Shown here: piece by piece, positions 1-14,829 of the stretch
How the letters are laid out: the number at the start of each line of letters is the position of its first letter
How positions within the stretch are numbered: position 1 is the first letter of the stretch
From: Cyanophora paradoxa CCMP329
Lineage: Eukaryota > Plantae > Glaucophyta
NCBI GenBank assembly: GCA_004431415.1
Contig: QPMI01000238.1
Location: forward strand, 1 to 49,848
Reading direction: 5' to 3'
DNA length: 49,848 bases
Program-made: the position numbers and the translations under genes
The notes under the pieces: model-generated
What the model was told of the DNA's origin: nothing
Seen by the model: only the letters and a program-made list of their open reading frames with translations
The model's database searches: none

Positions 1-1603
1 CCATGTGATCACCACAATTGCTACTTTGGTTTGCTTTGAGATTCTCCTGTGGAGGTTGCAGTTTCGGCATGCTTTCCCAATAAATGCTCCTGATTGATGA
101 CAATGGTCTCTCACTGGGAAATTCTCATGGGTAATCGTTCAGCACAGATTAACAGTGTTTAGTGATCTGTATTGGCTTTCTGCTCTCTGTGAGTGGTGAT
201 TGGAATATTGTGAATAGAGTGCGGAATTATTGGGGTCTGATCTCTGTGAGAGTGGTAACAGAGCACAAGTGGATCTGATCCCTCGAAATAATGAGAATCA
301 CTTATCCCATCACAACTGTTAAAGAACGATTGACTCTCTTTTACTGCGGTTCTCATCAATTGGAACCGAGTGATGTCATTTTTACATAGCAGATAGTGGG
401 AAGCCACACAGTTTTGCGAAGGTGTTGAAGCCCAAATGCAATGTGATTCCAGATTTCGGGCATTTACCTTTGCTCTCCTCCATCAATGCAGCGATTCGCT
501 TCTATATGAACATCCAGCTTCTCCTGAGTTCTGAAACGAGACAGACAGGTCTCACAGTAATAATGCGACATCATGGGTTTCAAAGGTGTTTTCAGAGTCT
601 ACTAGAGACATGATGGTGATATAATGCCCTTATCCTCTTCGTTTTCGATTATAAAAGGTTAATCTTGGTCTTTCTCCTGGGTTGCTGGATTGATGGAGAG
701 GATAGAACACTGTGCTTGATTATCTGCACCATAATGTTGATACTCAGTTCAGGGTTCTGCTCCTCAAATCGATCATAACCTCTGCATCACAGGCAACTGG
801 AACTGGATGCCTTCGAAATTGAGTTCGTTTAACCATCTTTATACTGGCTGGGTTCATTGCTCTTGTGTTTATTAATTCATTTCGGTGCAGGTAAGCCAAG
901 ATTGCATACTTGAGCAGTCTTGACCATCAATATTCTTCACATTACAGTTGCTCTCTTGATCCAATCCACTCAGGTGTTGAGAAGAAGCACCACCACAGGA
1001 GCATAAGACATTATTACCACTCTCAGCATCTCATGCGATCCAGTCTGTAACTGTCACCTGCATCATCTGCTCCTGCATGGATTGAAGGGCATTCGCAGTT
1101 CAACATCAATATTTCGTGATCTTGTGATGACAAGTATCACTGTAAATGAATTTCGTGATCCACACCCTGGGATCACTCACTTTGGTGAATTTACAAATGA
1201 AGGTCAACCGAGTTTTAATTGCTCTCAGGTCTTGGAGTTTCTTCTGAGTCTCTGAGGTAGAGTAGGTGCAATTCTCTCCAAGAATTCAATCCCATCTTGG
1301 ATAACCTCCCTCTGGCTCGATAGGTTAACCAGGAATATGCTTGTTCATGGCTTCCCCATCTTCAATCTCGGGTTCAATTGTTCCAACCTTAAACCTTCAT
1401 CCCTGAATTCCTCCATTTTCTCAAAACGATCATAGAGGCGATTTGTAATTTCTGTGAGTTGAGATAATCTTGGTCTTCTGTCCAGACTGCTGCCTGGCGA
1501 TCATATTCAAATTCTGTAATATCACCAGTGACTAAAAGGGTTCCTAAAAGACGAGTATTTCGTTTTTCTTCTCTTTGATGATTCTATTGGATTGGCGGGG
1601 CAT
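1..1603 (-). pseudogene. Protein-primed family-B DNA polymerase (pPolB), N-terminal half, many frameshifts; runs off the left edge
   Basis: Manual minus-strand translation across 1-bp gaps gives, in the expected order: NVKNIDGQDC(F)KYAILAYLH (~880-943), WLNELNFEGIQ(F)PV (~795-835), DRFEEQNPELSINIM (~733-775), HYITIMSL (~603-626), YYCETCLSRFRTQEKLDVH (~505-562) and VRDHCHQSGAFIGKACRNCNL (52-114). This is the motif series of EndoVII-containing Polinton pPolBs. Candidate ATG at 1601-1603. The frameshifts may be sequencing errors. Confidence 0.85.
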
Positions 1604-1705
1604 CTTTTACTTTAAGGGAACATATTATTTTTGGGCAATTTGAACGCATTTCGCATTTTTCAGGTTCTAATGATTCGCACATTCGTGCCTTTGGGACATA
1701 TACAT

Positions 1706-1849
1706 TTACTGTGTCAAGTCTGCTTGCATGGAATCGCTTCTTTTGATATGGTCTACCATTACTGGCTCTGATCTTTGCATATATTCCGCTACCTCTGCAA
1801 TATCATTCTTTTCGACCAGCTGCCGCTGAATTTCGTCGAAATAATCCAT
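1706..1849 (-). CDS. Small viral hypothetical protein (47 aa as read; may be frameshifted and longer)
   Basis: ATG at 1847-1849 (MDYFDEIQRQLVEK...), preceded by the CAAAAATTGAC-N5-ATTTAAGGG motif seen upstream of other viral genes. Confidence 0.3.
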   Translation of the reverse strand: MDYFDEIQRQLVEKNDIAEVAEYMQRSEPVMVDHIKRSDSMQADLTQ

Positions 1850-1880: not shown

Positions 1881-1905
1881 CCCTTAAATCGCCAGTCAAT
1901 TTTTG
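1881..1905 (-). promoter_or_regulatory. Putative early promoter CAAAAATTGAC-N5-ATTTAAGGG
   Basis: Same bipartite motif with the same spacing at 5043-5067; contains the AAAATTGA octamer. Confidence 0.6.
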
Positions 1906-1987
1906 TCAAAACACACCATTTACGATACGTTTTATATTGTCCGATAAAGAATCGAAAAAGTCATCGACCCACAGGGGGAGTCTGTGG

Positions 1988-2147
1988 TTAATTGGGTGTG
2001 ACGCCTGTGACGCCTGTGACACCTGTTTTCAGAGGTTTGTAGATTTTTGAAATTTTAAAAAGTTTGAAAGTAGGCGTCACAGGCGTCACAGGCGTCACAC
2101 TCAATTAAAAAGGTGTCACAGCTGTCACACAAACCATTTACAGTAAG
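1988..2147. repeat. Iteron/origin-like cassette A
   Basis: TGTGAC(G/A)CC at 1997, 2006, 2015; 49-bp AT-rich core 2024-2072; GGCGTCACA at 2073, 2082, 2091; arms 1988-2024 and 2072-2108 pair at 35/37; two extra degenerate units 2112-2129. Reverse-complement homolog of cassettes B and C. Confidence 0.9.
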
Positions 2148-2198
2148 GTTTTTAAAAAATAAGAAATTCAATCAGTATTAGAATCGATTCTGTTTTGT

Positions 2199-4555
2199 TT
2201 ACTCATCCCCACCTTCAACATCACTGTCATCCACCAACTTGCGACTATGCTTCTTTTTGATCCCAAGTAGCCACGAGCAAGAACACCATTGACTCGCTTT
2301 CTCTCAGCCTTCACATTAAAGACTTCGCGAAGTCTCTTCAAGATAGTGCATTCTGTGATTTTCTCATCAGATTTGCCATGTGATCCATCTTAAAGTGACT
2401 GATAATGGACTCACTTGTGGCGAAATCCCTTGACTCTTGGTGAGTTCATAACTCTCACGAATCCATTCTCCAATCTTGTCATTCTCATTGAAATATTCAA
2501 CACCTTGATCAACAATGGACTGGGTGGTTGGTGACGAATTCATTGAGAGAATGGGTTCTCCACATTTCCAGGAGAATGGACATATGCGCCATTTTATAAT
2601 CGTCATCATTCTTCATTAGGCGCATTAGAGTGGTGTCTGCTTTCTTCTCACCAGGCTGAGGATCGACCTTGAAGACATTTTCGAATCGGTAGTAGATAAT
2701 TCGCCTTTGGATTGCTGCATCTGGTTTACTGATTCCCAGGTTGTCATTTGTGGACAAGAACAACTGGAACATGGGAATGAATGTAACAAGATCTTTGAAA
2801 AGAGCTCGAACCTTCATCTCATTCCCACCAGTAACCTGTTTGATTTTGTTCAGTTGAAGCATATCACCATCTTCTGCTTCATTACTGAAAACAATTCGTT
2901 TACCAAGAATGCAAGCGAGTTCTGGGGAAGCCTCTGACGAACTCTTCTTGGTTTAGTCCAATATGTCATGTCCAGTGACCCATAATACTCACCAAATGTG
3001 TCTTTCACCAACTCTTGGAGCAGTGATTTCCCATTTGCTCCAATTCCAGTCCAGCAAGTGTATCTCTGATTTTCTGTCAAACCACTCAGGGCATAGGCGA
3101 TTAATCCCAGCATGAATTCGCGGTCTGTATCCGATTCAATAATATCTGCATAGATGGATTTAATCTTTGCAACCTTCTCTTGGTCAATTTCTGTGGTGTA
3201 ATCGTAGCCAACAGTCTTACTCACCATATCATATGGGAGTCCCTGTCGAAAAGTCATGGAGTTCAAGTCAAATACACCATTTGTGAACCCAATGATGTTG
3301 GGAACAGTATCAAGTCTCTCGAAAAAGGTCTTGTCACTGAACAGAACTGAAAGATCAGACATAAGTGCAGTTCTGTATGTAGTCTGTTTGAGGCTCTTAG
3401 CAATTCCCAGCAGAATCTTTGACCTTTCCTCCAAGGAATTGCGGTTCTCTTCATCACGAAGAGCTCTCTGTGCGAGTTGAACAGAACGTTGAAGATAAAC
3501 TGGACAGACCTTGCAGCTCAAACAGAGAAAGATTCGCTTCCCAGTTTCATCCATCTCCCAAATCCCACATACATCATTGAACTTGAACCAGGTCTTGTTG
3601 GAATACTTGTATTTGTCTTGCAGAACAAGATAGGCAACCTGTGCAACATCATAATGGGCACCATCAGATCCAGCAGACCGATCAATCAGATTTTCGATAT
3701 TCGCATCTGTCTCTTCCTTCACACGAATTGTGATAAGTCGCTTCTTGCAGTTTGCACTGTAACTCGAAACAATATATTTGTCTTTCTCCTTCCCTTGAAT
3801 AATATACCAATTGTTTGAGTCATGGCTTCCCTTGCAGCAGGGACAGACCAGACCTTTGTTCTCAGCAGTGAAATTGTATCCCATCTTGGTCTCATTGATG
3901 ATTGTGGGCAAGATGAAACCGAATTCTTCGAGTTTAGAAAGAATATGTTTCTGCAAATTCTCCTCAGCGCACCTTGCATAATAAGAATGTGCACCTTTGG
4001 GGAATTCGTAGTTTTCAACAATCCACTTTTGCAACTCAGCAGTGGGTTCATTTAACTCACACTCAGATGCCCATGGCTCTCTGATCCATGTTTTGTTGGG
4101 ACTGGGGCAAACATTAATCACCCCAGCAGTCCCAGTGGATGCAATCGTTTTGCAGTCGATCTTGGGGTTTCCTTTGAATGCACCCGCTTTATCCCAGATC
4201 TTAATGGTGTCGAATTCAGCAGGTCGAGCGAAGAATGCATGATATCCTTTTTTGGTTTTAGCAAGAGGATTAACACCACCGAAATCATCAGGAATTGCTC
4301 CTCGAATTTGGCGAAATCCTCCTCTTGGTCGAAGTCAATTACCAGGATATTACGAGCGAGAATGCCCCAAGCAGTATATTTACCGGATTTCAGGGCTTCA
4401 TCGAATTTATCCCAAGACCAGGTTCCGTCTTTATGAGCGAAAAGTGGCTTTTTGGTATCAGGATCAACAGGAATAACGATATTCTCAGACAGGACATCGT
4501 CTTCACGAAGCCATTCAACAAGGCGTTTCAGGGATTTCTTGGCGGCAGCGTTCAT
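2199..4555 (-). CDS. Prim-Pol (AEP) primase fused to D5-like SF3 helicase, about 785 aa once frameshifts are corrected
   Basis: Joins ORFs 4118..4555, 2850..4121, 2509..2862 and 2367..2609. Prim-Pol motifs IPV..TKKP, WGILARNILVIDFD, TKKGYHAFF, IDCK..GVINVCPS; Zn-binding CPCCKGSH; D5_N-like IGFTNGVFDL; Walker A GIGANGKS; SPELA..GKRIVFSNE; IKQVTGG; AIQRRI; C-terminal RVNGVLARGY; TAA at 2199-2201. Frameshifts near 4291, 2945, 2525 and several in 2260-2430. Confidence 0.9.
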
Positions 4556-4586
4556 TTCAACAATCGGGGGCTTCTTATCCTTAATG

Positions 4587-4639
4587 GAGAAATTAATTTC
4601 TCCGGTCGCTTGTCATTTTTTGGCGCCTAACCTTTAAAT
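4587..4639 (-). promoter_or_regulatory. Putative promoter of the primase-helicase gene (ATTTAAAGG, CAAAAAATGAC and ACCGGAGAAATTAATTTCTC boxes)
   Basis: All three boxes recur upstream of the ORF starting at 4977. Confidence 0.55.
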
Positions 4640-4749
4640 ACCTTTGGGTTCTCCGATTGGCGCTCGATGTATGGTAATGATCCATCGAAAAGTCGATTGA
4701 TCATGGTAACAAAAAGGATTCAGCGGATATCTGGGACTTTGGGGGCGGT

Positions 4750-4977
4750 TCAGTATTTTCTGGGACGACCTACTGGGCGTTTCACTGGATTATTGGGATC
4801 CATCTCAGCAGCTTTCCTGCGATAATATCGTTCCAGTGCCTTTTTACGATATAATTCTCGAAATTCCTCATCTTGATAGCGTTTCTGGAAATACAAGCGG
4901 TCATACAACCTTTTCCTCTCATTGGGATCCACCTCGCTCATTGCAAGTTCGAATTCGACCACAGATTCAGTTTCCAT
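4750..4977 (-). CDS. Small basic DNA-binding protein with C-terminal AT-hook
   Basis: 75 aa, R/K/Y-rich helix ending KRPVGRPRKY (GRP AT-hook core); conserved upstream motifs. Confidence 0.7.
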   Translation of the reverse strand: METESVVEFELAMSEVDPNERKRLYDRLYFQKRYQDEEFRELYRKKALERYYRRKAAEMDPNNPVKRPVGRPRKY

Positions 4978-5001
4978 TTGATATGTTCCTTATAATGGGA
5001 C

Positions 5002-5067
5002 GAGAAAATAATTTGTCCGGTTCACCAATCAAACACACCTTACCCTTAAATCCCTTGTCATTTTTTG
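5002..5067 (-). promoter_or_regulatory. Putative promoter CAAAAAATGAC-N5-ATTTAAGGG plus ACCGGACAAATTATTTTCTC box
   Basis: Matches the motifs at 1881-1905 and 4587-4606 (18/20 identical for the ACCGGA box). Confidence 0.6.
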
Positions 5068-5177
5068 CAGATCGAGACCAGTTCCTGTCTACGCTTTTTT
5101 ATTGCGGCTTCTGTTGCATATTCAGCGGATTTCCTTTCAAGGATAGCATAGATCTCAGAGAGACTGAGCATTCGATA

Positions 5178-5411
5178 TTAATTACCGAGATTTAATTTCG
5201 GATCTGTGAAAGATACAGACCTGCGCCTCACTGTCTCTGTTTTAATATGCTCTTCGAAATCCACCGAATCTGTGGATAATCGCCTACCACCAGATCCATG
5301 ACTCTCAGTGTCAGAGAATTCGATTTCGACTTTGGTTTCACAGCAGCCACTGTGACAATTGCTCACAATGTGGAGATTGAACATCTCTATGAGTTTTCGC
5401 AAGAAATCCAT
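5178..5411 (-). CDS. Viral hypothetical protein (77 aa, CHSGCC motif)
   Basis: ATG-started ORF packed tightly in the co-oriented viral gene run. Confidence 0.6.
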   Translation of the reverse strand: MDFLRKLIEMFNLHIVSNCHSGCCETKVEIEFSDTESHGSGGRRLSTDSVDFEEHIKTETVRRRSVSFTDPKLNLGN

Positions 5412-5438
5412 GATGCTCTCTCTCTTAATGCGAGATAA

Positions 5439-6173
5439 TTAAAGCCAAACTCGTCGTTTATATACTGTTGGGGCAACACCTTTATCGACCTCTGATTTGG
5501 TAGCACCAGGTTCAATGGTGCCCTTCTGGGTTTTGGTCTTCATCTCATCAACTGCCTGCTCATCAATTTGAGTCTCTTTCTTACCAATGAACTGCTTATC
5601 TGGGAGACCAGTGATTCCCATTCTATACACCTCCTTTCGCAGCATCTCCTTTAATTTCGCTCTCTCTTTCTTCTCAGAGACATACTGTTCAAGAGCACTG
5701 GATTTCGCTTCCAGATCTTTAAGTTTCGCAGTCATTTCGTCCCATTGGGCTTTGGGAATTCGATGGATATTCTGTGTAGGTGCGACCTTGTAGGTTACCT
5801 CACCAGCCATGGATTGAATTACCTTGTCTGATTCTTTGGATACACCTTCACCTTTGCGAGCAAGGGACAGATCTTGGAGACCCAGTCCTTTGTCATCAGC
5901 AGCACCAATAATTCGACGAGCACCTTCACCAACTGCCTTCATCTTAGAGGTTTCGGGCGAAATATTCAACTGGTCACTTGTGGAAGCTTGGGGAGCTTTA
6001 TCATCTGGTGATTCTTCGTAAGCAGCATTGAGGGGATCTTCTTGTTGCTGTGATGCTTTAACTTCATTGACACCATTGAATTTCATGGGCTCTGTGTTAA
6101 TAGAACCGGTTCCAGAGGATGCAGAATATGACATAGCACCAGCAGGAACACCAACTTTGCGTTTGGAAGGCAT
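5439..6173 (-). CDS. Viral hypothetical protein (244 aa, K/E-rich, coiled-coil segment; possible virion core protein)
   Basis: Long intact ORF immediately downstream of the ATPase with 27-28 bp intergenic gaps; function not recognised. Confidence 0.75.
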   Translation of the reverse strand: MPSKRKVGVPAGAMSYSASSGTGSINTEPMKFNGVNEVKASQQQEDPLNAAYEESPDDKAPQASTSDQLNISPETSKMKAVGEGARRIIGAADDKGLGLQDLSLARKGEGVSKESDKVIQSMAGEVTYKVAPTQNIHRIPKAQWDEMTAKLKDLEAKSSALEQYVSEKKERAKLKEMLRKEVYRMGITGLPDKQFIGKKETQIDEQAVDEMKTKTQKGTIEPGATKSEVDKGVAPTVYKRRVWL

Positions 6174-6201
6174 TGTATATTTATTAGAAGCAGAGATTAT
6201 T

Positions 6202-6984
6202 TTATAAACCTCTCTTATATCGCATCAGTTTATTCGAATGAACACCACTCTTGACCTCTTTGGGGGCTTCCTCTTTCTGTGGAGGTGGTAATTCGTCCTC
6301 TTTCTTTTTGGGCTTCCTGTGGAACCGAGGAAACTTAAAGTCTTTAACGAGTTCCGCTTTATCAACGTAGTATTCCACCGAATAATTCGCAGAACTCCAA
6401 ATGAGAAACTGATAGGAGTGAACGTATTCCTCAAACATCTTATAGAAAGCGTCTTTATCCCGCATGATATTGTATTCTTCTTCAATGGCTTCCAGTTCTT
6501 TGCGATTGGCGGCACTGAGGAACATTGCATAATCCGAATTGACGCGAATGGTTGAAGAAACCTTACGCAGTTTCTGAGTTATGCAGAAAATTGTAATCGC
6601 CGAGTGGCGGCCGCGCGAATACAGAGATCCAATAATTTTATCACGGGTAAGGTCTACAATCTCATTGTCTATAAGATCATCGAGAACAACACATAATTGA
6701 TTAACGGGTTCTCCTTTCTCAATTTTCTCTTGTCTTTCATCGAGAAGTTTAGCGATGTAAGGCGCATCCCATTTACCGAGCTGTAATGTTGCGACATCAT
6801 CCCAAAAATGATTGAATGATGTCCCACTTATAACAAGAACAACATCTAACTTTTTCGCATCGTGAAGTTGTTTTAGCCAATATTTTACGGCTTCTGACTT
6901 GCCCGTCGCGCTTTTTCCGATTGCTAATACGCGAAAAGGGGGTTTAATCATCTCAGCAGCATTAAATTCGGGAACGTCAGACAT
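6202..6984 (-). CDS. A32-like (FtsK/HerA superfamily) genome-packaging ATPase
   Basis: PPFRVLAIGKSATGKS (Walker A), LCVVLDD (Walker B), SRGRHSAITIFCITQ and TIRVNSDY, which are signature motifs of A32 ATPases. Confidence 0.95.
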   Translation of the reverse strand: MSDVPEFNAAEMIKPPFRVLAIGKSATGKSEAVKYWLKQLHDAKKLDVVLVISGTSFNHFWDDVATLQLGKWDAPYIAKLLDERQEKIEKGEPVNQLCVVLDDLIDNEIVDLTRDKIIGSLYSRGRHSAITIFCITQKLRKVSSTIRVNSDYAMFLSAANRKELEAIEEEYNIMRDKDAFYKMFEEYVHSYQFLIWSSANYSVEYYVDKAELVKDFKFPRFHRKPKKKEDELPPPQKEEAPKEVKSGVHSNKLMRYKRGL

Positions 6985-7046
6985 GGCTTTGTAGATCTTT
7001 CTTATTAAAGATAGATAAAAATAACGAAACGTTACTGATAATGGTT

Positions 7047-8420
7047 TTACAGATTAATGCGACGAAGACCATCTTTGTCAACAATAATGAAACTGTGCAT
7101 GAGAGCACGAACATTAACTGTGATTGTCTGGTCAGAAGGCATGTATAGAGTAAGGAAAGAAGAGGAGGAGTTCGTGAGATCAACATAGCCAGACTGGGCA
7201 ATGTTGCGAATCGCTTTCTCTCCATCAACACAGAATGGTAGACCACTGAGGACATATTTGTCTGCAACCTTGTCCATATTTGAGCACTTGAAGGCATCCG
7301 CAATTAATTCGGCACCTTTGAGGAGAGGGATGGGCTCAGTAGCATAGAGACGTTGACCATTAATTTCAACAGTGAAAGTAATGTCTTTTGAGTTAGCATG
7401 CGTTTTTAGGACACTGTGGGAACCATTGAAACCATCAATACCTGCGGCATCACGAACTGAAACAAGAAGACCATAGACAAGACCAGAGATCTGTGACAGG
7501 TTAATACGATTTGGTTGAGCATTGCCTTTTGCAGCAAAATTGACACTGTCAACAAAACCAATATCCAGAGCAGGAATAGCCATACCAGTGGTCTTCACCT
7601 TCTCAATGACAGTAGCAAACAGTTCATCAGAAACATTAATAGCATGCATGTAAAGACGAGGAGAAGTGACTTTAATTTCGGGGGTTGTTGTTGCACCAAT
7701 TCCAAAAGTGGTGATTTGTTGACCAACATGGGCAAGAGTAGCATTAGCAGTAGCACCAAGTCCATCATCCTCTGTCTTATCAGCAGCTGTTCCACCAACA
7801 ACAGGAAGAGCACGACCACCATAAGAAGTCTCAACATAACCCTTTCCAGCATCCTTGAACCAGACAGTTACCACCATTTCTCCTGAGAGAGCACCAAGAG
7901 GTAGGTAGTGGTTTAGCCATGGGACTGGGATTTCAGTGAAAAATGACCCACCAAGTCGGTTGGTTCCATGGGCAGGGATACCATGAACCATTCCCATTGA
8001 ACGCTTCTTCTTGGCGAGTTGATCCTCACTGTAATAGATAAGAGGGAAATGAGCAAGGAAATCAGAAGGCACATGGAAGGTGTAAGATCCATAGGTAATT
8101 TCAAGTCGAGAGACAAGAGCACCAACTGGGCGAACGTATCCATTGCGAACAAGGTCGGTATCACCAGCAAAAGTGACAGCTGGAAGGTCAAACGCAAGTT
8201 CGAGTTTTCCACAGAAATTGTAGCGAGGGAGCTTGAAAGAAATGCGATTTCCAGCATTATTCTCGAAAGTGTTGCTTGGGTTCACAACAACAAGAACTGG
8301 CTTCGACTTGGATTCAAGACCAAGCATGAGAGAGTTGTCCAAGAAGAACGCCTTGGCTTCTTCCGGGGTTGTTAGAGCTTCTTTCAGAGAAAGACGTTGG
8401 AGGGTCGAAGTAATATCCAT
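7047..8420 (-). CDS. Double jelly-roll major capsid protein (457 aa from ATG 8420)
   Basis: GNRISFKLPRY..LAFDLP, GALVSRLEITYG, IPVPWL..YLPLGAL..MVVTVWF follow the DJR Capsid_N pattern; size and position between ATPase and penton genes fit a PLV MCP. Confidence 0.85.
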   Translation of the reverse strand: MDITSTLQRLSLKEALTTPEEAKAFFLDNSLMLGLESKSKPVLVVVNPSNTFENNAGNRISFKLPRYNFCGKLELAFDLPAVTFAGDTDLVRNGYVRPVGALVSRLEITYGSYTFHVPSDFLAHFPLIYYSEDQLAKKKRSMGMVHGIPAHGTNRLGGSFFTEIPVPWLNHYLPLGALSGEMVVTVWFKDAGKGYVETSYGGRALPVVGGTAADKTEDDGLGATANATLAHVGQQITTFGIGATTTPEIKVTSPRLYMHAINVSDELFATVIEKVKTTGMAIPALDIGFVDSVNFAAKGNAQPNRINLSQISGLVYGLLVSVRDAAGIDGFNGSHSVLKTHANSKDITFTVEINGQRLYATEPIPLLKGAELIADAFKCSNMDKVADKYVLSGLPFCVDGEKAIRNIAQSGYVDLTNSSSSFLTLYMPSDQTITVNVRALMHSFIIVDKDGLRRINL

Positions 8421-8474
8421 GATTATCTCTTTTATTATACTGCAACATAAAAAATTCACCAATGATCCTTGATT

Positions 8475-9485
8475 TTACGCAAAATTCGCAATAACCGGAT
8501 AAGATGGATGTGTTTCCGCCATTCTCCTCTTGAAGTATTCGTACACAGGATCACCAGCAGGTTCATCACCATATCGAATTTCGAAGGTGAGGTGGACAGG
8601 TTGACCCTCGAAATCAATTGGTTCATTAACTGCATTCACAATATCAACCGAAAATGTGGAAAGTCCCAGATTCTTGTTATAGTATTTATAAATCGGATGG
8701 GCTTCTGTCGAATTATAAACGACATGCTCACCATAATCTTTATCTGGAACAACGATTTTGTGGAAATATCCAGTGAGGAGACCATCACCACATTGAACCA
8801 GATCACCCAACTCCTTTACTCTCACAAACAGAACACTATCCCTGGTCTTTTCAGGTTCAAATGAAGATATGATACCATGCACCATCGACCCAGTAAAGAT
8901 ACCATCAGTCAGAGTATTATAAACTTGTGATTGGATTGGGGTGTTACCATATCTCCCAGGATCAAGACCAAGCAGTCGAGCAGAACTCAAAAACCTCTGA
9001 ATCTGCGCCTGGGTTGGGTTTATTGCAGTTGAGAAAGCCAGGTAAAACGGTATGGTGGAATGGAATATTACTCGTTTCAGTGTATCATCCCATTTACAGC
9101 GAATTGCTACTGGTGGCTCTCTCAATGCAAGTTTGGAGTTAATTACATTCACCAGTTGTTGGTGGTTTTGAATGGGTGTGCTGCGACTTATCACAATGTG
9201 CTTCCATTGCTCATAATCGGCAGCAGGTCGATCAGTTGGAATACCAGTGCTTCCTGCACCAGAATAATATTCAGACCAATAAAGGTAGATTGCATTATCT
9301 ATTGTCACATCTCCTACTTTGGTTTCACCACTCACCATGGGAATGCTGTTATAGAATTCTGCTGAAACCAGTCTTACTGCTCTCACAAATTCATAGGTGC
9401 TGGGGAGGCGAGCAATAAAACTCGAAGTAGGTCCATCTCCCGAAATTGTATTGAAAGAGCTCACTTCGATGTAATCCACAGGCAT
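8475..9485 (-). CDS. Minor capsid (penton-like, single jelly-roll) protein 1
   Basis: N-terminal IEVSS..SSFIARLP..VRAVRLVSAEFYNS; C-terminal LFVRVKEL..FSVDIVNAVNEPIDFEGQPVHLTFEI, the PLV/Polinton mCP pattern. Confidence 0.75.
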   Translation of the reverse strand: MPVDYIEVSSFNTISGDGPTSSFIARLPSTYEFVRAVRLVSAEFYNSIPMVSGETKVGDVTIDNAIYLYWSEYYSGAGSTGIPTDRPAADYEQWKHIVISRSTPIQNHQQLVNVINSKLALREPPVAIRCKWDDTLKRVIFHSTIPFYLAFSTAINPTQAQIQRFLSSARLLGLDPGRYGNTPIQSQVYNTLTDGIFTGSMVHGIISSFEPEKTRDSVLFVRVKELGDLVQCGDGLLTGYFHKIVVPDKDYGEHVVYNSTEAHPIYKYYNKNLGLSTFSVDIVNAVNEPIDFEGQPVHLTFEIRYGDEPAGDPVYEYFKRRMAETHPSYPVIANFA

Positions 9486-9513
9486 CTTCTTTTATCTATA
9501 AACATATATTAAA

Positions 9514-10446
9514 ATGATTCGGCTGGTCAATATAGATAGCAGAGACCGATCAGATGGACAAATAGAAAACTCCTACAAAGTTTCACTCACAACCCCAGTG
9601 ACCAAACCAAGAGAATGTCGAGTTTTGTATGCAGAGATCCCCAACAGCATCTATAATTCCATTGGAACAGACCACCTTCTTGTCAGATTCTTCTACCAAG
9701 GCATCTCTGAAACCAAACAGGTCTTCCTTCTCCCAAGTGGTTATATTAATCAAGGGCATTTCGGGGTCACCAGTCCATATAATTATGGTCTGAATTTCAC
9801 ATTTACTGGGAGCAACAATCTCACATATGCATTCAAAGTCTACTATAATCCTACCTCCTACAAATTGGAGTTTTACAGTAATGTTCAATTCGAGATGGTA
9901 GCATCTACACAGAGATTGGGTAAACTTCTTGGGGTTAGTTCTGTGGAGTGGGTCGCTTCAATTGAGCAAACCTACGATTTCCCAGAGTCTGCAAGGTCTT
10001 TATATGCCCCCGAGAATTTCCTCTATTTTGCAGGAATCCCAATCACCCCAAACCATCCACAATGGGGAATTACATTTACAGGATATGAATTCGAGGCATC
10101 TCGCTTAAACTACAAGTTAGAAGCAGCCAAGATGACAGACATGAATGCAGAACAGTATTTATACATGCACATTAAAGAACTCTCCCCATTTGCTACAAAC
10201 CACAATATTGTCCCAAGATCACAACCACAGAATCAAGGGGCGATTCTCAGATTGCAGTTAAGTAAAGATATTGGGCAGTATGTATATCACAGTGGAGAGC
10301 ACAGTGAATACATAAAAATAACCGATCGAAACCTGGTGATTAGAGAGTTAACAGTTGAGTTTCGAGATTATTATGGTGATCTTGTAGATATGAATGGGAT
10401 TGACAACTCATTCCAGTTGGAGTTCTTGGCTATTGGTAATGATTAA
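9514..10446 (+). CDS. Minor capsid (penton-like, single jelly-roll) protein 2
   Basis: N-terminal VNIDSRDR..YKVSL..RVLYAEIPNSIYN; C-terminal YLYMHIKEL..LTVEFRDYYGDLVDMNGIDNSFQLEF. Confidence 0.8.
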   Translation: MIRLVNIDSRDRSDGQIENSYKVSLTTPVTKPRECRVLYAEIPNSIYNSIGTDHLLVRFFYQGISETKQVFLLPSGYINQGHFGVTSPYNYGLNFTFTGSNNLTYAFKVYYNPTSYKLEFYSNVQFEMVASTQRLGKLLGVSSVEWVASIEQTYDFPESARSLYAPENFLYFAGIPITPNHPQWGITFTGYEFEASRLNYKLEAAKMTDMNAEQYLYMHIKELSPFATNHNIVPRSQPQNQGAILRLQLSKDIGQYVYHSGEHSEYIKITDRNLVIRELTVEFRDYYGDLVDMNGIDNSFQLEFLAIGND

Positions 10447-10696
10447 ACCGATCCTGATAGAAGAACTCTCCATCTGTCTCGAAAATATTAAGAAGGGGAC
10501 TCTTAGCATCCTCTGTATACCATCGGCGAATTGTCTTATCCCATTTAGCACCATTCTTTTTCAAGAATCTACAAAGAGTTGATCTCCTTGTAATTCGCAA
10601 TCCCATCTCTTGAAAGATCTCATAATGATCTTGCATTCTATTCACAATCAAGATGTAAGTTCCATGGAAATTGTGATATTGCTGGTTAATCGGCAT
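10430..10696 (-). CDS. Small viral protein with a DUF5710-like motif (88 aa from ATG 10696)
   Basis: LKKNGAKWDKTIRRWY matches the K.xGAxWD...xWY motif; the start at 10696 is supported by CAAAAATTGAC at 10728-10738. Confidence 0.6.
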   Translation of the reverse strand: MPINQQYHNFHGTYILIVNRMQDHYEIFQEMGLRITRRSTLCRFLKKNGAKWDKTIRRWYTEDAKSPLLNIFETDGEFFYQDRFNHYQ

Positions 10697-10718
10697 GTTT
10701 CCTTTACAGCATGATGGG

Positions 10719-10738
10719 AAATCGTTTGTCAATTTTTG
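10719..10738 (-). promoter_or_regulatory. Putative early promoter CAAAAATTGAC-N5-ATTT
   Basis: Fourth copy of the motif, about 32 bp upstream of the ATG at 10696. Confidence 0.55.
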
Positions 10739-10871: not shown

Positions 10872-11052
10872 CTTACTGAAAATGGTCAGATAATCGGGTG
10901 TGACACCTATTTAATTGACTGTGACGCCTCTTTAATTGACTGTGACGCCTGTGACGCCTGTGACGCCTACTTTCAAACTTTTTAAAATTTTCAAAAATTA
11001 CAGACTTCTGAAAACAGCCGTCACAGCCGTCACAGGCGTCACACCCAATTAA
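10872..11052. repeat. Iteron/origin-like cassette B
   Basis: TGTGACGCC at 10941, 10950, 10959 (extra units at 10899 and 10920); 49-bp core 10968-11016; G(C/G)CGTCACA at 11017, 11026, 11035; inverted relative to cassette A. Confidence 0.9.
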
Positions 11053-11182
11053 AAATGGAATCTCTTTCTCTTACTGAGATTCTCGAGAATATATTCTTGT
11101 CTTACTGAAATCCGTCTTGTGACACCTCTGACACCTCCAAAACACTATCCATTAATCAACCTTTTTGAAAATGCGAAGTTGT

Positions 11183-11334
11183 CTTACTGGAAATGGTCTG
11201 CAATTTTGCTGTGACACCTAATTTAATTGAGTGTGACGCCTGTGACGCCTGTGACACCTACTTTCAAACTTTTTAAAATTTTCAAAAATGACAGACTTCT
11301 GAAAACAGGCGTCACAGCCGTCACAGGCGTCACA
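11183..11334. repeat. Iteron/origin-like cassette C
   Basis: TGTGAC(G/A)CC at 11232, 11241, 11250 (extra unit at 11210); 49-bp core 11259-11307; G(G/C)CGTCACA at 11308, 11317, 11326; direct repeat of cassette B. Confidence 0.9.
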
Positions 11335-11447
11335 GACATTCCACCCCTCTTACTGACTTTCTCAAAAACAAAACTATCTCTTACTGAATATCATTTGAAT
11401 ACTACCTGTCACACTTGATCTCAATTATTCTGTTTTATAGAACATAT

Positions 11448-11706
11448 GCAATCTAATCGAATGTTCAATTGGAGACCATGCAACTCTGTGACACTTTTTT
11501 CAATCTAAAATATACATCCGCAATCTCATCGATTGTTTAATTGGAGACCATGCAGTTCCGATATATTCCAATAGAAAATCCCGCAATCTAATCGATTGTT
11601 TAATTGGAGATAATGCAACTCTGTGACACTTTTTCGGTGCAAAAATGTACATCAGCAATCTCATCGATTGTTCAATTGGACACAATGCAACTCTGTGACA
11701 CTTTTT
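11448..11706 (+). repeat. Subterminal tandem array, 4 units (periods 72, 63, 72 bp)
   Basis: Core GCAATCTmATCGAwTGTTyAATTGGAsAymATGCA at 11448, 11520, 11583, 11655; units 1, 3 and 4 continue ACTCTGTGACACTTTTT. Confidence 0.85.
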
Positions 11707-12026
11707 GCGTTTTTCGATACAGAATGGGCGGTGGTCTACTTCAATACATGAGAGATATATCGAGTTTATGCGAATTTATGCAATTTAATCGCGATTATAT
11801 CGATCTTTAAGTAGTTTAATGTTAATCTATCGCAGATTTGTATGTAAACAACAAAGTACATAATCAATCGATATAAGATCAATTGAATCTATCGAAGTTT
11901 AATCGAAAATATGCATTTTGGAAAACGCGTTTTCGTTTTTAATACAAAGTTTGCATTATTTTATACAAAGTTTGCATAAAAAGTTAAAGAAATTAATCGA
12001 AAAATATGTATTTTAGTATTAAATTA

Positions 12027-12111
12027 ACACATATTGAAAAACGAATTTAAATCCAGGAGCGAAGCGCGAAGCGCGAAGCGGAGGGATTTAAATTCGTTTT
12101 TCAATATGTGT
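12027..12111. repeat. Perfect 28-bp inverted repeat with a (GCGAAGC)3 loop
   Basis: ACACATATTGAAAAACGAATTTAAATCC (12027-12054) and its exact reverse complement (12084-12111); the 29-nt loop has GCGAAGC at 12059, 12066 and 12073. Confidence 0.95.
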
Positions 12112-13490
12112 GACATCGATGTCGGCGTCACCGAGTGCGATTCTTTCACTGAACTCCGGAGGCGTAGAGATGACCGGCGAGAGAATTGAAATGGTCCCGG
12201 GGTGCGATCGGGGTGCGATTTGCAGCGCTCGTCAGTTTTCGCTGACCCCAATCGTCGGCATCCTCAGCTTCGAAATGGGCTGCTGCGGTATAGAGCCGAA
12301 CGAAATCCCTGGAGCTGGGTTGACCAGCCTCGGCACGCGCGACACGCCAGTCCTGTACGCGACTTGGTCAAGTTTCAAGGACGACTATGTTATGGCGAAC
12401 TCCAAATATGTGTATGCCCATCAACTGAACGTCACGAGTGCGATCATTGTTTTCGCACTCATTATTGAATCATGCAATATTTATATATTTCTCCCGCAGT
12501 GCCGCCCACCCCGACACCGTCCGCGACGCCTTCGCCGTCTCCGACCCCCTCGGCGTCTCCGTCGCCGTCCCCCTCGCCGTCCGCGATGCCCCCGCCGTCT
12601 GCGCTGCCCACTCCGCCTCCGCCTGCGGATCCGATCGCGACCCCCACCACGATTCCGGTACCTCCTCCAACGACGCCGACGACCGAGCAGCAGCAGACTC
12701 AGGCCACTAGTACTCCGACGCCAACTGCAGCTGCTCTGCCACTTGCAGTTGCACCACTGGTGCGGATTGACTGAAAGCTGGAGTCTGCATTTGATCTCAA
12801 CCACTTGCTTGAATGTGAACGCGATCGCGTGCAGCCCTTCATCACCAAGAACGAGAGCAAGGAGGTCGTCGTCGGCAATTTCAAGGTTCGAATCGACTTC
12901 AAGATTTTCCATCACCATTCATATTACCGCCGTTGACAATTGCGCAACAACAGTTTAAGCCGACGGATTTCAAGCCTGACAAGGTGTAGTTTTTTTTATT
13001 CCCCTGACTCTCCGTCACGTGTGCGTAACTATAATCTCGCGACATCGCTAAAGCTTGTGAACGCCAGGACGCGGATGGCAAAAATGTTTACAAGGTCCAG
13101 CTTCCTGCAGCGGTCGTCTCTGCTTCAACGGTTCACTCGCTTGCACTTTGTTTTGTCATGATCAACGGTTATTCCTCGTCATACTGACCATGATCGCAGA
13201 CCGGATCCAGCGCGAACAATTTCGTTATCATTCCAGTCACCGGCGTCCTCGAGGTGCGCTCAGTGCATATATCAATTTCTCGAAATAATCCGATCGATAT
13301 TCAGCTCCCGATAATCAGCTCCCGATAATTAGAACCTGTGTTTACACAAATGTTTAAACGAATGCAGGTCGGGGATAAAGTGATCGTGTTCATCATGAGC
13401 GCGGACGGCAAGACAAAGCGTCCGGCAACGCAGACTTCCGTCGAGGCGTCCGGCAACGACGTCGTTCTCAAATTCAGTAAGAACGGATAT
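12112..13490 (+). pseudogene. Possibly 5'-truncated spliced host gene with a Pro/Ser/Thr-rich linker
   Basis: Codon-like exons bounded by GT..AG (e.g. acceptor at 12499; PTPTPSATPSPSP tract; VGDKVIVFIMSADGK exon); in-frame TGA at 12772-12774; the 3' end may extend to about 14.1 kb. Confidence 0.35.
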
Positions 13491-14829
13491 ATCATTAATA
13501 CATAATTTCTTCTCATCGATTTCGGCCCCCCGCGGCCACGATCCGCAGAGGCTCCGCAGCTGCGCCGTAGCCTGCTGCAGTTCGGCGCCAATATCGCAGT
13601 GCGTTTGAGGGTTCCTCGTGCGCACCGCCTCCTCTCAACGCACTGCAGTACGACCTTCGCATCGAGCCGGACCCGGTCGCACCCGGAGCGCGCGCGTTCA
13701 TCCCGATCGTCTTTGGCGGCGTGCGCTTGCTTTAATTTGCTTCGATTCCTATCAACTCGATCAATATCTGGCGATGAACATGCGCAATGCATATATATAC
13801 ATGAATGCGCAATAAAAAAGGAGAATATTAATAATTACAATATTCGCGAATTTGACTTTAAACTACCACGCAACAGGCATTCCAATGGACCGCGCTCGCT
13901 TCATCTGTCCCCTATTGGCCCAACGGCGCGGCGTCCATTCACGTAAGCCTGTTTCAGCTGTTTAATTTGCTTTACATCAACGGTCTGATCTAATATTATG
14001 CCCCCCGCAGAACTCGCTGGTTTCCAACATTGTTTGCGCCCTCGTCTCGATCTCTTTCGCCCTCGTCATGCAGATCTAGATGCATTTGCCTGGGGCGAAC
14101 CAGGAGGAGATCGACAGGTCCGAGGTCGACCTGGCGCCGGCACGGCCACCGGTTCAATAAAATCTTGCGCTTGCGATACATATGATTTCGGTTTCGGTTT
14201 ATATAATTAAAAAGGTTTTCGATCACACTGTAGCTATTCGAAATTCATAGATCTAGATTTCGTGTAATAATGCGAATATTAAATAATTATAATTATAATG
14301 CACGTAGGGTTCGATTTTAACTAGTAAGCGCATGCACACGCACGCGTACGCGTGGTTCCCACGTGCACTAGCCGCGTCGGCACCAGCACGGGCGGACTTG
14401 AGCACTTAGCTTGCACGAGGACTTGAGCGGGGCCTAGCTGGCGCGGGCATGCGCAGGGCCCGGGGTTCGTTCTCGCTTGCCTGCAGCTGCACGCGCATGC
14501 GCAGCCGCTGGGCTGCGGCTTGCAGGCATCCTAGACTGGAGATATATGCGTGTACCGCCGCGTGCTGCGTCGGCGCCCATGGGAGCTCGCGCGACGCACA
14601 AGGCTGAGCTTAAAAAAGCTTGAGCGGTGACAACTGGTGGGGCCCGGGCCGGGGGAGCACCGGCTACGTTGGGCACTAGTACTAGTACTGGCTGGCAAGG
14701 AGGAGGGGGCCGGGGGAGAGGGGGGACGACTGGCTGGCGCTGGCTGGCTAAGTGAGGAAGGGAGGGGGAAAGAAAGCGAGCGCTGGCCATGGGCCGCGGG
14801 CTCGGCATGGGGGCGCCGAGGGGGCGGGG

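Follow-up and report, generated by a model that had tools for sequence, protein, structure and literature searches.

A recurrent CAAAAAWTGAC word before the replication genes of an endogenous polinton-like virus of Cyanophora paradoxa: a possible early promoter

The stretch of DNA analysed here (the window: 49,848 nucleotides (nt), contig QPMI01000238.1 of the Cyanophora paradoxa CCMP329 assembly GCA_004431415.1) begins with a low-GC element that extends from position 1 to about 12,110 and has a GC content of 35-44%, against about 70% in the host part. The element is a multi-copy endogenous polinton-like virus (PLV), whose right 12 kb lie in the window. An 11-nt word, CAAAAAWTGAC, occurs four times in the window, always on the minus strand, which is the coding strand of the gene that follows, with no further copies. 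Copy 1, CAAAAATTGAC, lies at 1895-1905, 45 nt from the ATG at 1849 of a gene for a probable protein-primed polymerase (pPolB; 5' part, 1-1849, minus strand); this start is a presumed one, the gene being frameshifted in the window. Copy 2, CAAAAAATGAC(AAG), at 4612-4622, is 56 nt from the ATG of a gene for a primase-D5-like superfamily 3 (SF3) helicase (2170-4555, minus strand). Copy 3, also CAAAAAATGAC(AAG), at 5057-5067, is 79 nt from an open reading frame (ORF) for a basic protein of 75 amino acids (aa; 4750-4977, minus strand). Copy 4, CAAAAATTGAC(AAA), at 10728-10738, is 31 nt from the ORF for an 88-aa protein (10430-10696, minus strand) with a weak match to DUF5710 (E 8e-4, below the Pfam cut-off); an out-of-frame two-codon ORF begins 15 nt past this copy. 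None of the six other genes has the word within 150 nt before its ATG. A previous reading of this DNA from its letters (the sequence-only reading) had placed the word at these four sites, some 30-80 bp before an ATG, with ATTT exactly 5 nt past three copies and ATTTAAGGG past two, and had not seen it before the packaging ATPase, major capsid and penton genes, to which it ascribed short AT-rich leaders, with TAATAA before three of the minus-strand genes. These observations were all reproduced.

Shuffling the whole window proved too lenient, about three quarters of it being about 70% GC, and the procedure was therefore repeated on the low-GC part only. Here CAAAAAWTGAC is expected 0.05 times on average, and four or more copies were found in 0 of 1000 shuffles. 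Copy number by itself is unremarkable post hoc, as 44 of 100 shuffles contain some gapped 11-mer four times. Placement, on the other hand, is beyond chance: when the 150 nt upstream of each of the 10 genes were shuffled as sets, a gapped 11-mer common to four genes appeared in 0 of 1000 sets and one common to three genes in 6 of 1000. A 20-nt matrix made from three sites returned the held-out site at rank 1 of 24,182 positions in all four trials, a partly circular exercise; the four sites score 27-29 bits and the next-best position 12.8 bits. The octamer AAAATTGA, present without change inside only two of the four motif sites and with one mismatch in the other two, shows no enrichment in the low-GC part (4 seen, shuffle mean 2.2, with 183 of 1000 shuffles reaching 4). 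The longer word is very likely a functional cis-element.

The four motif regions are mosaics of common boxes (CAAAAAWTGAC, ATTTAARGG, GGTGTGTTT and CCGGASAAATTA) arranged in differing order. ATTTAARGG is present in three of the four regions, GGTGTGTTT and CCGGASAAATTA in two each, and a further copy of GGTGTGTTT lies antisense near motif copy 4. Five nt past the motif, ATTT is found at three copies, and at two of these it is part of ATTTAAGGG (1881-1889 for copy 1, 5043-5051 for copy 3); the remaining copy, copy 2, has ATTTAAAGG 8 nt upstream, at 4631-4639. GGTGTGTTT is upstream of copy 1 (1909-1917) and at 5031-5039 near copy 3, which also has a CCGGASAAATTAWTTTCTC box in common with copy 2. 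The block formed by motif copy 2 and the ATTTAAAGG upstream of it (4609-4650, minus strand) is found again, between unrelated flanks, in further contigs from this organism: all three DNA-type sequencing runs contain contigs that match just 4609-4645 or 4609-4650. In one of them (run X10), a 1,141-nt contig matches the block across 42 nt only, with 6 differences, at a depth of 260 versus 38 for the host-flank contig. Two of the motif-bearing genes have roomy upstream regions, of 194 and 200 nt, and the other two adjoin palindromes (see below). The six genes lacking the motif have upstream gaps of 27-62 nt. TAATAA precedes three of these six (23 of 2000 shuffles reach three) and ATAAR five of them (36 of 2000 shuffles), both words having been picked after looking.

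The probable pPolB has matches to Endonuclease_7 (E 0.002, below the Pfam cut-off) and C2H2 (E 0.03), and we take this N-terminal layout of endonuclease VII plus zinc finger to be that of polinton polymerases. The primase-helicase, which is spread over several frames and whose 3' end is approximate, matches D5_N (E 1e-9) and Prim-Pol (E 0.075); one homologue, 31% identical, carries Prim-Pol, PriCT-2 and D5_N accessions. The element appears to have two replicases, each preceded by the motif. The genes for the two carry frameshifts in the window, and since well-covered contigs differ from it there by single-base indels, the breaks reflect either errors of assembly or a decayed copy. The 75-aa protein belongs to no firm family and ends in KRPVGRPRKY, of which GRPRK is presumably AT-hook-like; it is a possible DNA-binding, regulatory or genome-packing protein.

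The genes without the motif begin with a 77-aa ORF (5178-5411, minus strand) and a 244-aa ORF (5439-6173, minus strand; TAATAA leader), neither with a family match. They are followed, also on the minus strand and behind TAATAA leaders, by genes for an A32-type packaging ATPase (6202-6984; Pox_A32 E 4e-9, above cut-off) and a double jelly-roll major capsid protein (7047-8420), the latter recognised by feature-based search and a structure model. Presumed minor capsid protein 1 (8475-9485, minus strand) is so labelled from its position, its size and the sequence-only reading, and has no Pfam, PHROG or PDB match; presumed minor capsid protein 2 (9514-10446, plus strand) has no Pfam or PHROG match, and its C-terminal part weakly resembles protein 1 (E 0.03). 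These two genes diverge, with 28 nt between their ATGs (9485-9514), and TTTTATCTAT is common to this gap and the ATPase leader. The capsid-module genes are open, intron-free ORFs with 28-62 nt between them. The major capsid protein has a feature score of 0.98 to Capsid_N/Capsid_NCLDV clusters, 12-30% of whose members carry the family, with a recognition score below the usual level. Its structure model, of low confidence (predicted local distance difference test, pLDDT, 37), matches the capsids of iridovirus, PRD1, PBCV-1 and mavirus, with a best E of 6e-7; a single-sequence model (pLDDT 32) was unusable. The protein is a near-orphan, having two relatives among 1.84 billion representatives; the closer one, with an identity of about 60%, comes from C. 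paradoxa.

The capsid, the A32 ATPase and a replicase of its own place the element among the PLVs; we do not assign it to the virophages proper. The latter (Maveriviricetes) are defined by a cysteine maturation protease and a capsid of Sputnik/mavirus type (PMC10120064). A scan of ORFs from the 12 kb available of this incomplete element gave no protease match, and the capsid model, poor as it is, ranks nucleocytovirus capsids over that of mavirus. No integrase was seen in the part inside the window, the element running past its left edge. Nineteen runs of one organism contain 70-74% of sampled words of this DNA, and in three runs the main element contigs are about 10-40 times deeper than host-flank contigs, a figure that is a rough guide and not a copy number; many variants are present. 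The ratio of observed to expected CpG (o/e) is 0.69 in the element versus 1.11 in the host part. It is uneven by gene, being 0.37-0.67 in six genes and 0.89-1.29 in the 75-aa, 77-aa and ATPase genes, perhaps the mark of a mosaic history. PLVs endogenous to C. paradoxa have already been catalogued (PMC10120064, PMC12220804, PMC8502044). The element probably belongs to the same population, its closest capsid being a C. paradoxa protein, although it was not matched to any of the entries consulted. The word "promoter" is absent from the main text of two surveys covering them (PMC10120064, PMC12220804), and a promoter analysis of Cyanophora PLVs was not found in the literature covered.

The reading that we favour, with a probability of about one half, is that the word is an early promoter of replication genes read by the early factor of a co-infecting nucleocytovirus, by analogy with Gezel-14T. 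Gezel-14T (PgVV-14T) is a helper-dependent PLV of Phaeocystis globosa that needs the giant virus PgV, and its early motif has ten matches, five of which precede Yrec, TVpol, pgvv05, seg2 and pgvv16 (10.1101/2022.07.28.501842). The two elements share the PLV gene set, an early word of AAAATTGA type before replication genes and small ORFs, and AT-rich intergenic stretches; this similarity of layout is the main argument that we can offer for a helper virus. The placement beyond chance, the fit of all four sites to WWWWWTGW, the promoter block found again between unrelated flanks and the open, intron-free ORFs of the capsid module point the same way, as do the endogenous giant-virus elements reported in C. 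paradoxa (10.1101/2025.04.15.648976). The present element differs in that its word is fixed as CAAAAAWTGAC and accompanied by neighbouring boxes, in that a probable pPolB and a primase-D5 helicase replace TVpol, and in being known from sequence alone. As we infer promoter function, timing and reader, the early transcription factor of the co-infecting virus would recognise the CAAAAAWTGAC core, the polymerase, the primase-helicase and small DNA-binding proteins would be the first products of the silent provirus, and the capsid and packaging genes would follow later, from their short AT-rich leaders. Likeness of promoters has been used to argue for helpers in other cases (10.64898/2026.07.28.741278, 10.1101/2025.10.09.676808).

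The sequence-only reading had linked the word to the mimivirus early promoter, a likeness that is exact for two of its four copies. AAAATTGA is the early promoter of mimivirus, PgV and pacmanvirus, and the octamer also precedes the helicase gene of a pacmanvirus transpoviron (PMC5294985, PMC11788076). With these promoters and with the poxvirus early core AAAANTGAAAA, from which three of the four sites are one mismatch away, the word has in common an A-tract leading into TGA, at most 150 nt ahead of the start codon. It departs from the mimivirus promoter in that only two sites are exact, in that a fixed C after TGA breaks WWWWWTGWWWWW, and in lacking 3' hairpins. The early words of chloroviruses, AATGACA/ATGACAA, have their hotspot at -60 to -90 (PMC5294985); they match exactly at two of the present sites, which lie 62 and 85 nt ahead of the ATG (-62 and -85) and thus in the same distance range, one site having one mismatch and one 2-3 mismatches. 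The present word differs from those of chloroviruses in belonging to a small integrated virus and in its longer fixed A-tract and leading C. In its letters it is a hybrid, two copies matching the mimivirus AAAATTGA and two the chlorovirus words; its TGACAA ending would suit an algal nucleocytovirus, chlorovirus-like or other, no less well than a mimivirus. As a further difference from chloroviruses, none of the 10 upstream regions contains ARNTTAANA, TATAAAT or GTNGATAYR.

Several points weigh against a reader brought by a helper virus. In the mimivirus/Sputnik system mRNA 3' ends have palindromic hairpins (PMC3946568). All nine gene ends examined here, taken from 10 nt ahead of the stop codon to 60 nt beyond it, are no better than shuffles in this respect, the longest stems being 3-6 bp. 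Given this lack of hairpins, mimivirus proper is unlikely to be the helper. The consensus WWWWWTGWWWWW, by which an Antarctic survey flagged helper-dependent PLVs and which is present in 6-19% of them by clade (PMC11502894), fits none of the four sites; the looser WWWWWTGW fits all four, as well as sequences before three of the six motif-less genes. An iridovirus promoter likewise begins with AAAATTGA (PMC5294985), and TsV-N1 is an autonomous nuclear PLV (10.1101/2022.07.28.501842). PBCV-1 is devoid of RNA polymerase and presumably uses that of its host, possibly with a viral factor (PMC3946568, PMC7019647); the exact chlorovirus words at two of the four sites, combined with this lack of a polymerase, mean that the word does not require a cytoplasmic helper. 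The spacing between motif and ATG is variable (31-79 nt). No variants are listed inside the two covered motifs, an outcome with a chance expectation of p 0.48 (13 variant sites in 394 intergenic nt). The provirophages of Cafeteria of the mavirus/EMALE type use the late word TCTA of CroV, in an AT-rich context, and type-specific words are taken to predict the helper (PMC8547959). The present element resembles these as a multi-copy, low-GC integrated virus in a GC-rich protist and differs in its capsid lineage and in its lack of TCTA enrichment: TCTA is found before three of six genes against a shuffle mean of 2.1, and 645 of 2000 shuffles reach three. The association of the motif with gene class (replication and small genes versus capsid and packaging genes) is weak, with a p of 0.08 that becomes 0.05 when the 244-aa gene is classed as structural; the gaps of 27-62 nt upstream of the genes lacking the motif are a confounder. 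Of the two temporal promoter classes proposed by the sequence-only reading, the word before replication and small genes stands, while the classes themselves derive from gene function only. Its picture of a virophage-like element switched on by a giant virus retains the Gezel-14T precedent; the element is a PLV, and the missing hairpins and unremarkable TCTA count do not favour such a switch.

The main alternative, which we hold to be less likely, is that the word is an early promoter read in the nucleus by RNA polymerase II and a factor of the host. The element would then be an autonomous virus or transposon silenced by methylation, with no helper, and the TGAC-rich palindromes would act as enhancers or origins. 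Such an arrangement would account for the two exact chlorovirus words inside the published hotspot, for a TATA-like ATTTAA(A)GG beside the word at three of the four sites, for the roomy upstream regions of the motif genes and for the absence of mimivirus-type hairpins. It would also agree with the CpG-poor composition of the element and with the methylation of viral genes reported in C. paradoxa (10.1101/2025.04.15.648976). The giant-virus elements reported in this species show contact with nucleocytoviruses, and methylation and CpG depletion fit silencing; neither decides who reads the word. However, ATTTAA stands downstream of the motif twice and upstream of it once, whereas a TATA box would keep a fixed position, and AAAWTGAC is absent from the 37.7 kb of host DNA in the window, a weak argument as this DNA is about 70% GC. 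Furthermore, an A-tract with a TGA core is common to nucleocytoviruses that use their own polymerase, and chlorovirus early promoters may need a viral factor as well.

A scheme between the two, which we regard as improbable, would have the provirus keyed to an algal giant virus of chlorovirus kind that enters the nucleus without a polymerase, in place of a cytoplasmic helper of mimivirus type: the early factor of the algal virus would redirect host polymerase II to promoters of AATGACAA type, switching on the integrated copies in place. About as doubtful is the idea that the element encodes the protein that binds the word, the 75-aa basic protein being one example, or that the word is a portable promoter module and recombination joint for gene swaps between sister elements. 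The mosaic build of the four regions, with its changing order of boxes, and the recurrence of one block in foreign context would suit this idea, as would the finding that the palindrome units, too, have TGAC as their core and that the arms of a terminal hairpin are the next-best matrix match (12.8 bits). But a functional promoter would equally show reuse of modules, and no new binding protein is needed to explain why the copies lie strictly in sense orientation near start codons and match published viral early promoters. Chance likeness among AT-rich intergenic regions, in spite of the ease with which shuffles yield some gapped 11-mer four times and the ordinary frequency of AAAATTGA, is very improbable in view of the position-aware shuffles, the leave-one-out ranks and the reuse of the block in other contigs.

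With a helper-read promoter as the preferred explanation, the element represents a known kind of system, the concept having been published for Gezel-14T and in the Antarctic PLV survey, in a new host lineage. Cultured PLVs differ in how they are switched on: some depend on a giant virus, and one is independent of it. Cyanophora combines many PLVs with reported giant-virus remnants, and a word as sharp as this one is a probe for the missing helper and for telling helper-dependent from host-read expression. The case also carries a warning: because chloroviruses, which lack an RNA polymerase of their own and presumably rely on host polymerase II, employ an overlapping word, a match to AAAA(A/T)TGA is no proof of helper dependence or of a virophage lifestyle. 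If the helper were of chlorovirus kind, the portable promoter block would be a sequence tag for finding a glaucophyte giant virus.

Searches for related loci were negative for the capsid gene in viral contigs (IMG/VR), JGI metagenomes, phage records and PDB sequences, and for the ATPase gene in viral contigs, metagenomes and prokaryote genomes. Eight proteins of the element had no exact-sequence match in the protein collection, no tRNA or Rfam match was obtained, and 22 long host ORFs had no Pfam match. A 25-nt extended form of the motif had 0 matches in IMG/VR. A 20-nt form had at least 120, and these were put down to chance: among the matches listed, 95 were in ORFs and 10 were intergenic with an ATG less than 100 nt away, mostly as single occurrences. 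One 90-kb viral contig (L014) was rejected as a relative, as it contains the 11-mer only twice in 90 kb, before tRNA-like genes. At 1501-1540 of that contig, AAATTGAC stands twice in tandem, and the surroundings of one of these words closely resemble those of motif copy 4; a nuclease-like ORF adjoins.

The palindromes form a family of three imperfect 120-nt copies with an AT-rich centre, built of GTGACRCCT units. The copy at 1988-2108 (z -12.6) is internal; it separates the genes for helicase and polymerase and begins some 80 nt upstream of motif copy 1; the second, at 10931-11053 (z -9.7), is about 190 nt upstream of motif copy 4, and the third lies at 11222-11345 (z -7.8). Two of the three are upstream of motif-bearing promoters. 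By analogy they are candidate replication origins or enhancers, and we liken them to the homologous regions of baculoviruses. The palindrome unit was also met in five other contigs, which were rejected as unrelated and phage-like, at least one of them encoding Val-Thr-Pro repeats. A joint between 11054 and 2114, considered as a sign of a circle, was likewise rejected, the similar palindromes accounting for it.

At the element-host junction lies a terminal hairpin (12027-12111; z -10.8) with a near-perfect stem of about 28 bp and a GC-rich loop; each of its arms is the best promoter-matrix match after the four true sites, which may be chance. The terminal region also contains a 107-nt repeat present three times (11448-11761), at spacings of 135 and 72 nt. 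Beyond the junction, at 12115-14300, is a single-copy flank of about 50% GC, intermediate between about 42% in the element and about 70% in the host, with a Pro/Thr/Ser-rich reading frame at 12472-12774.

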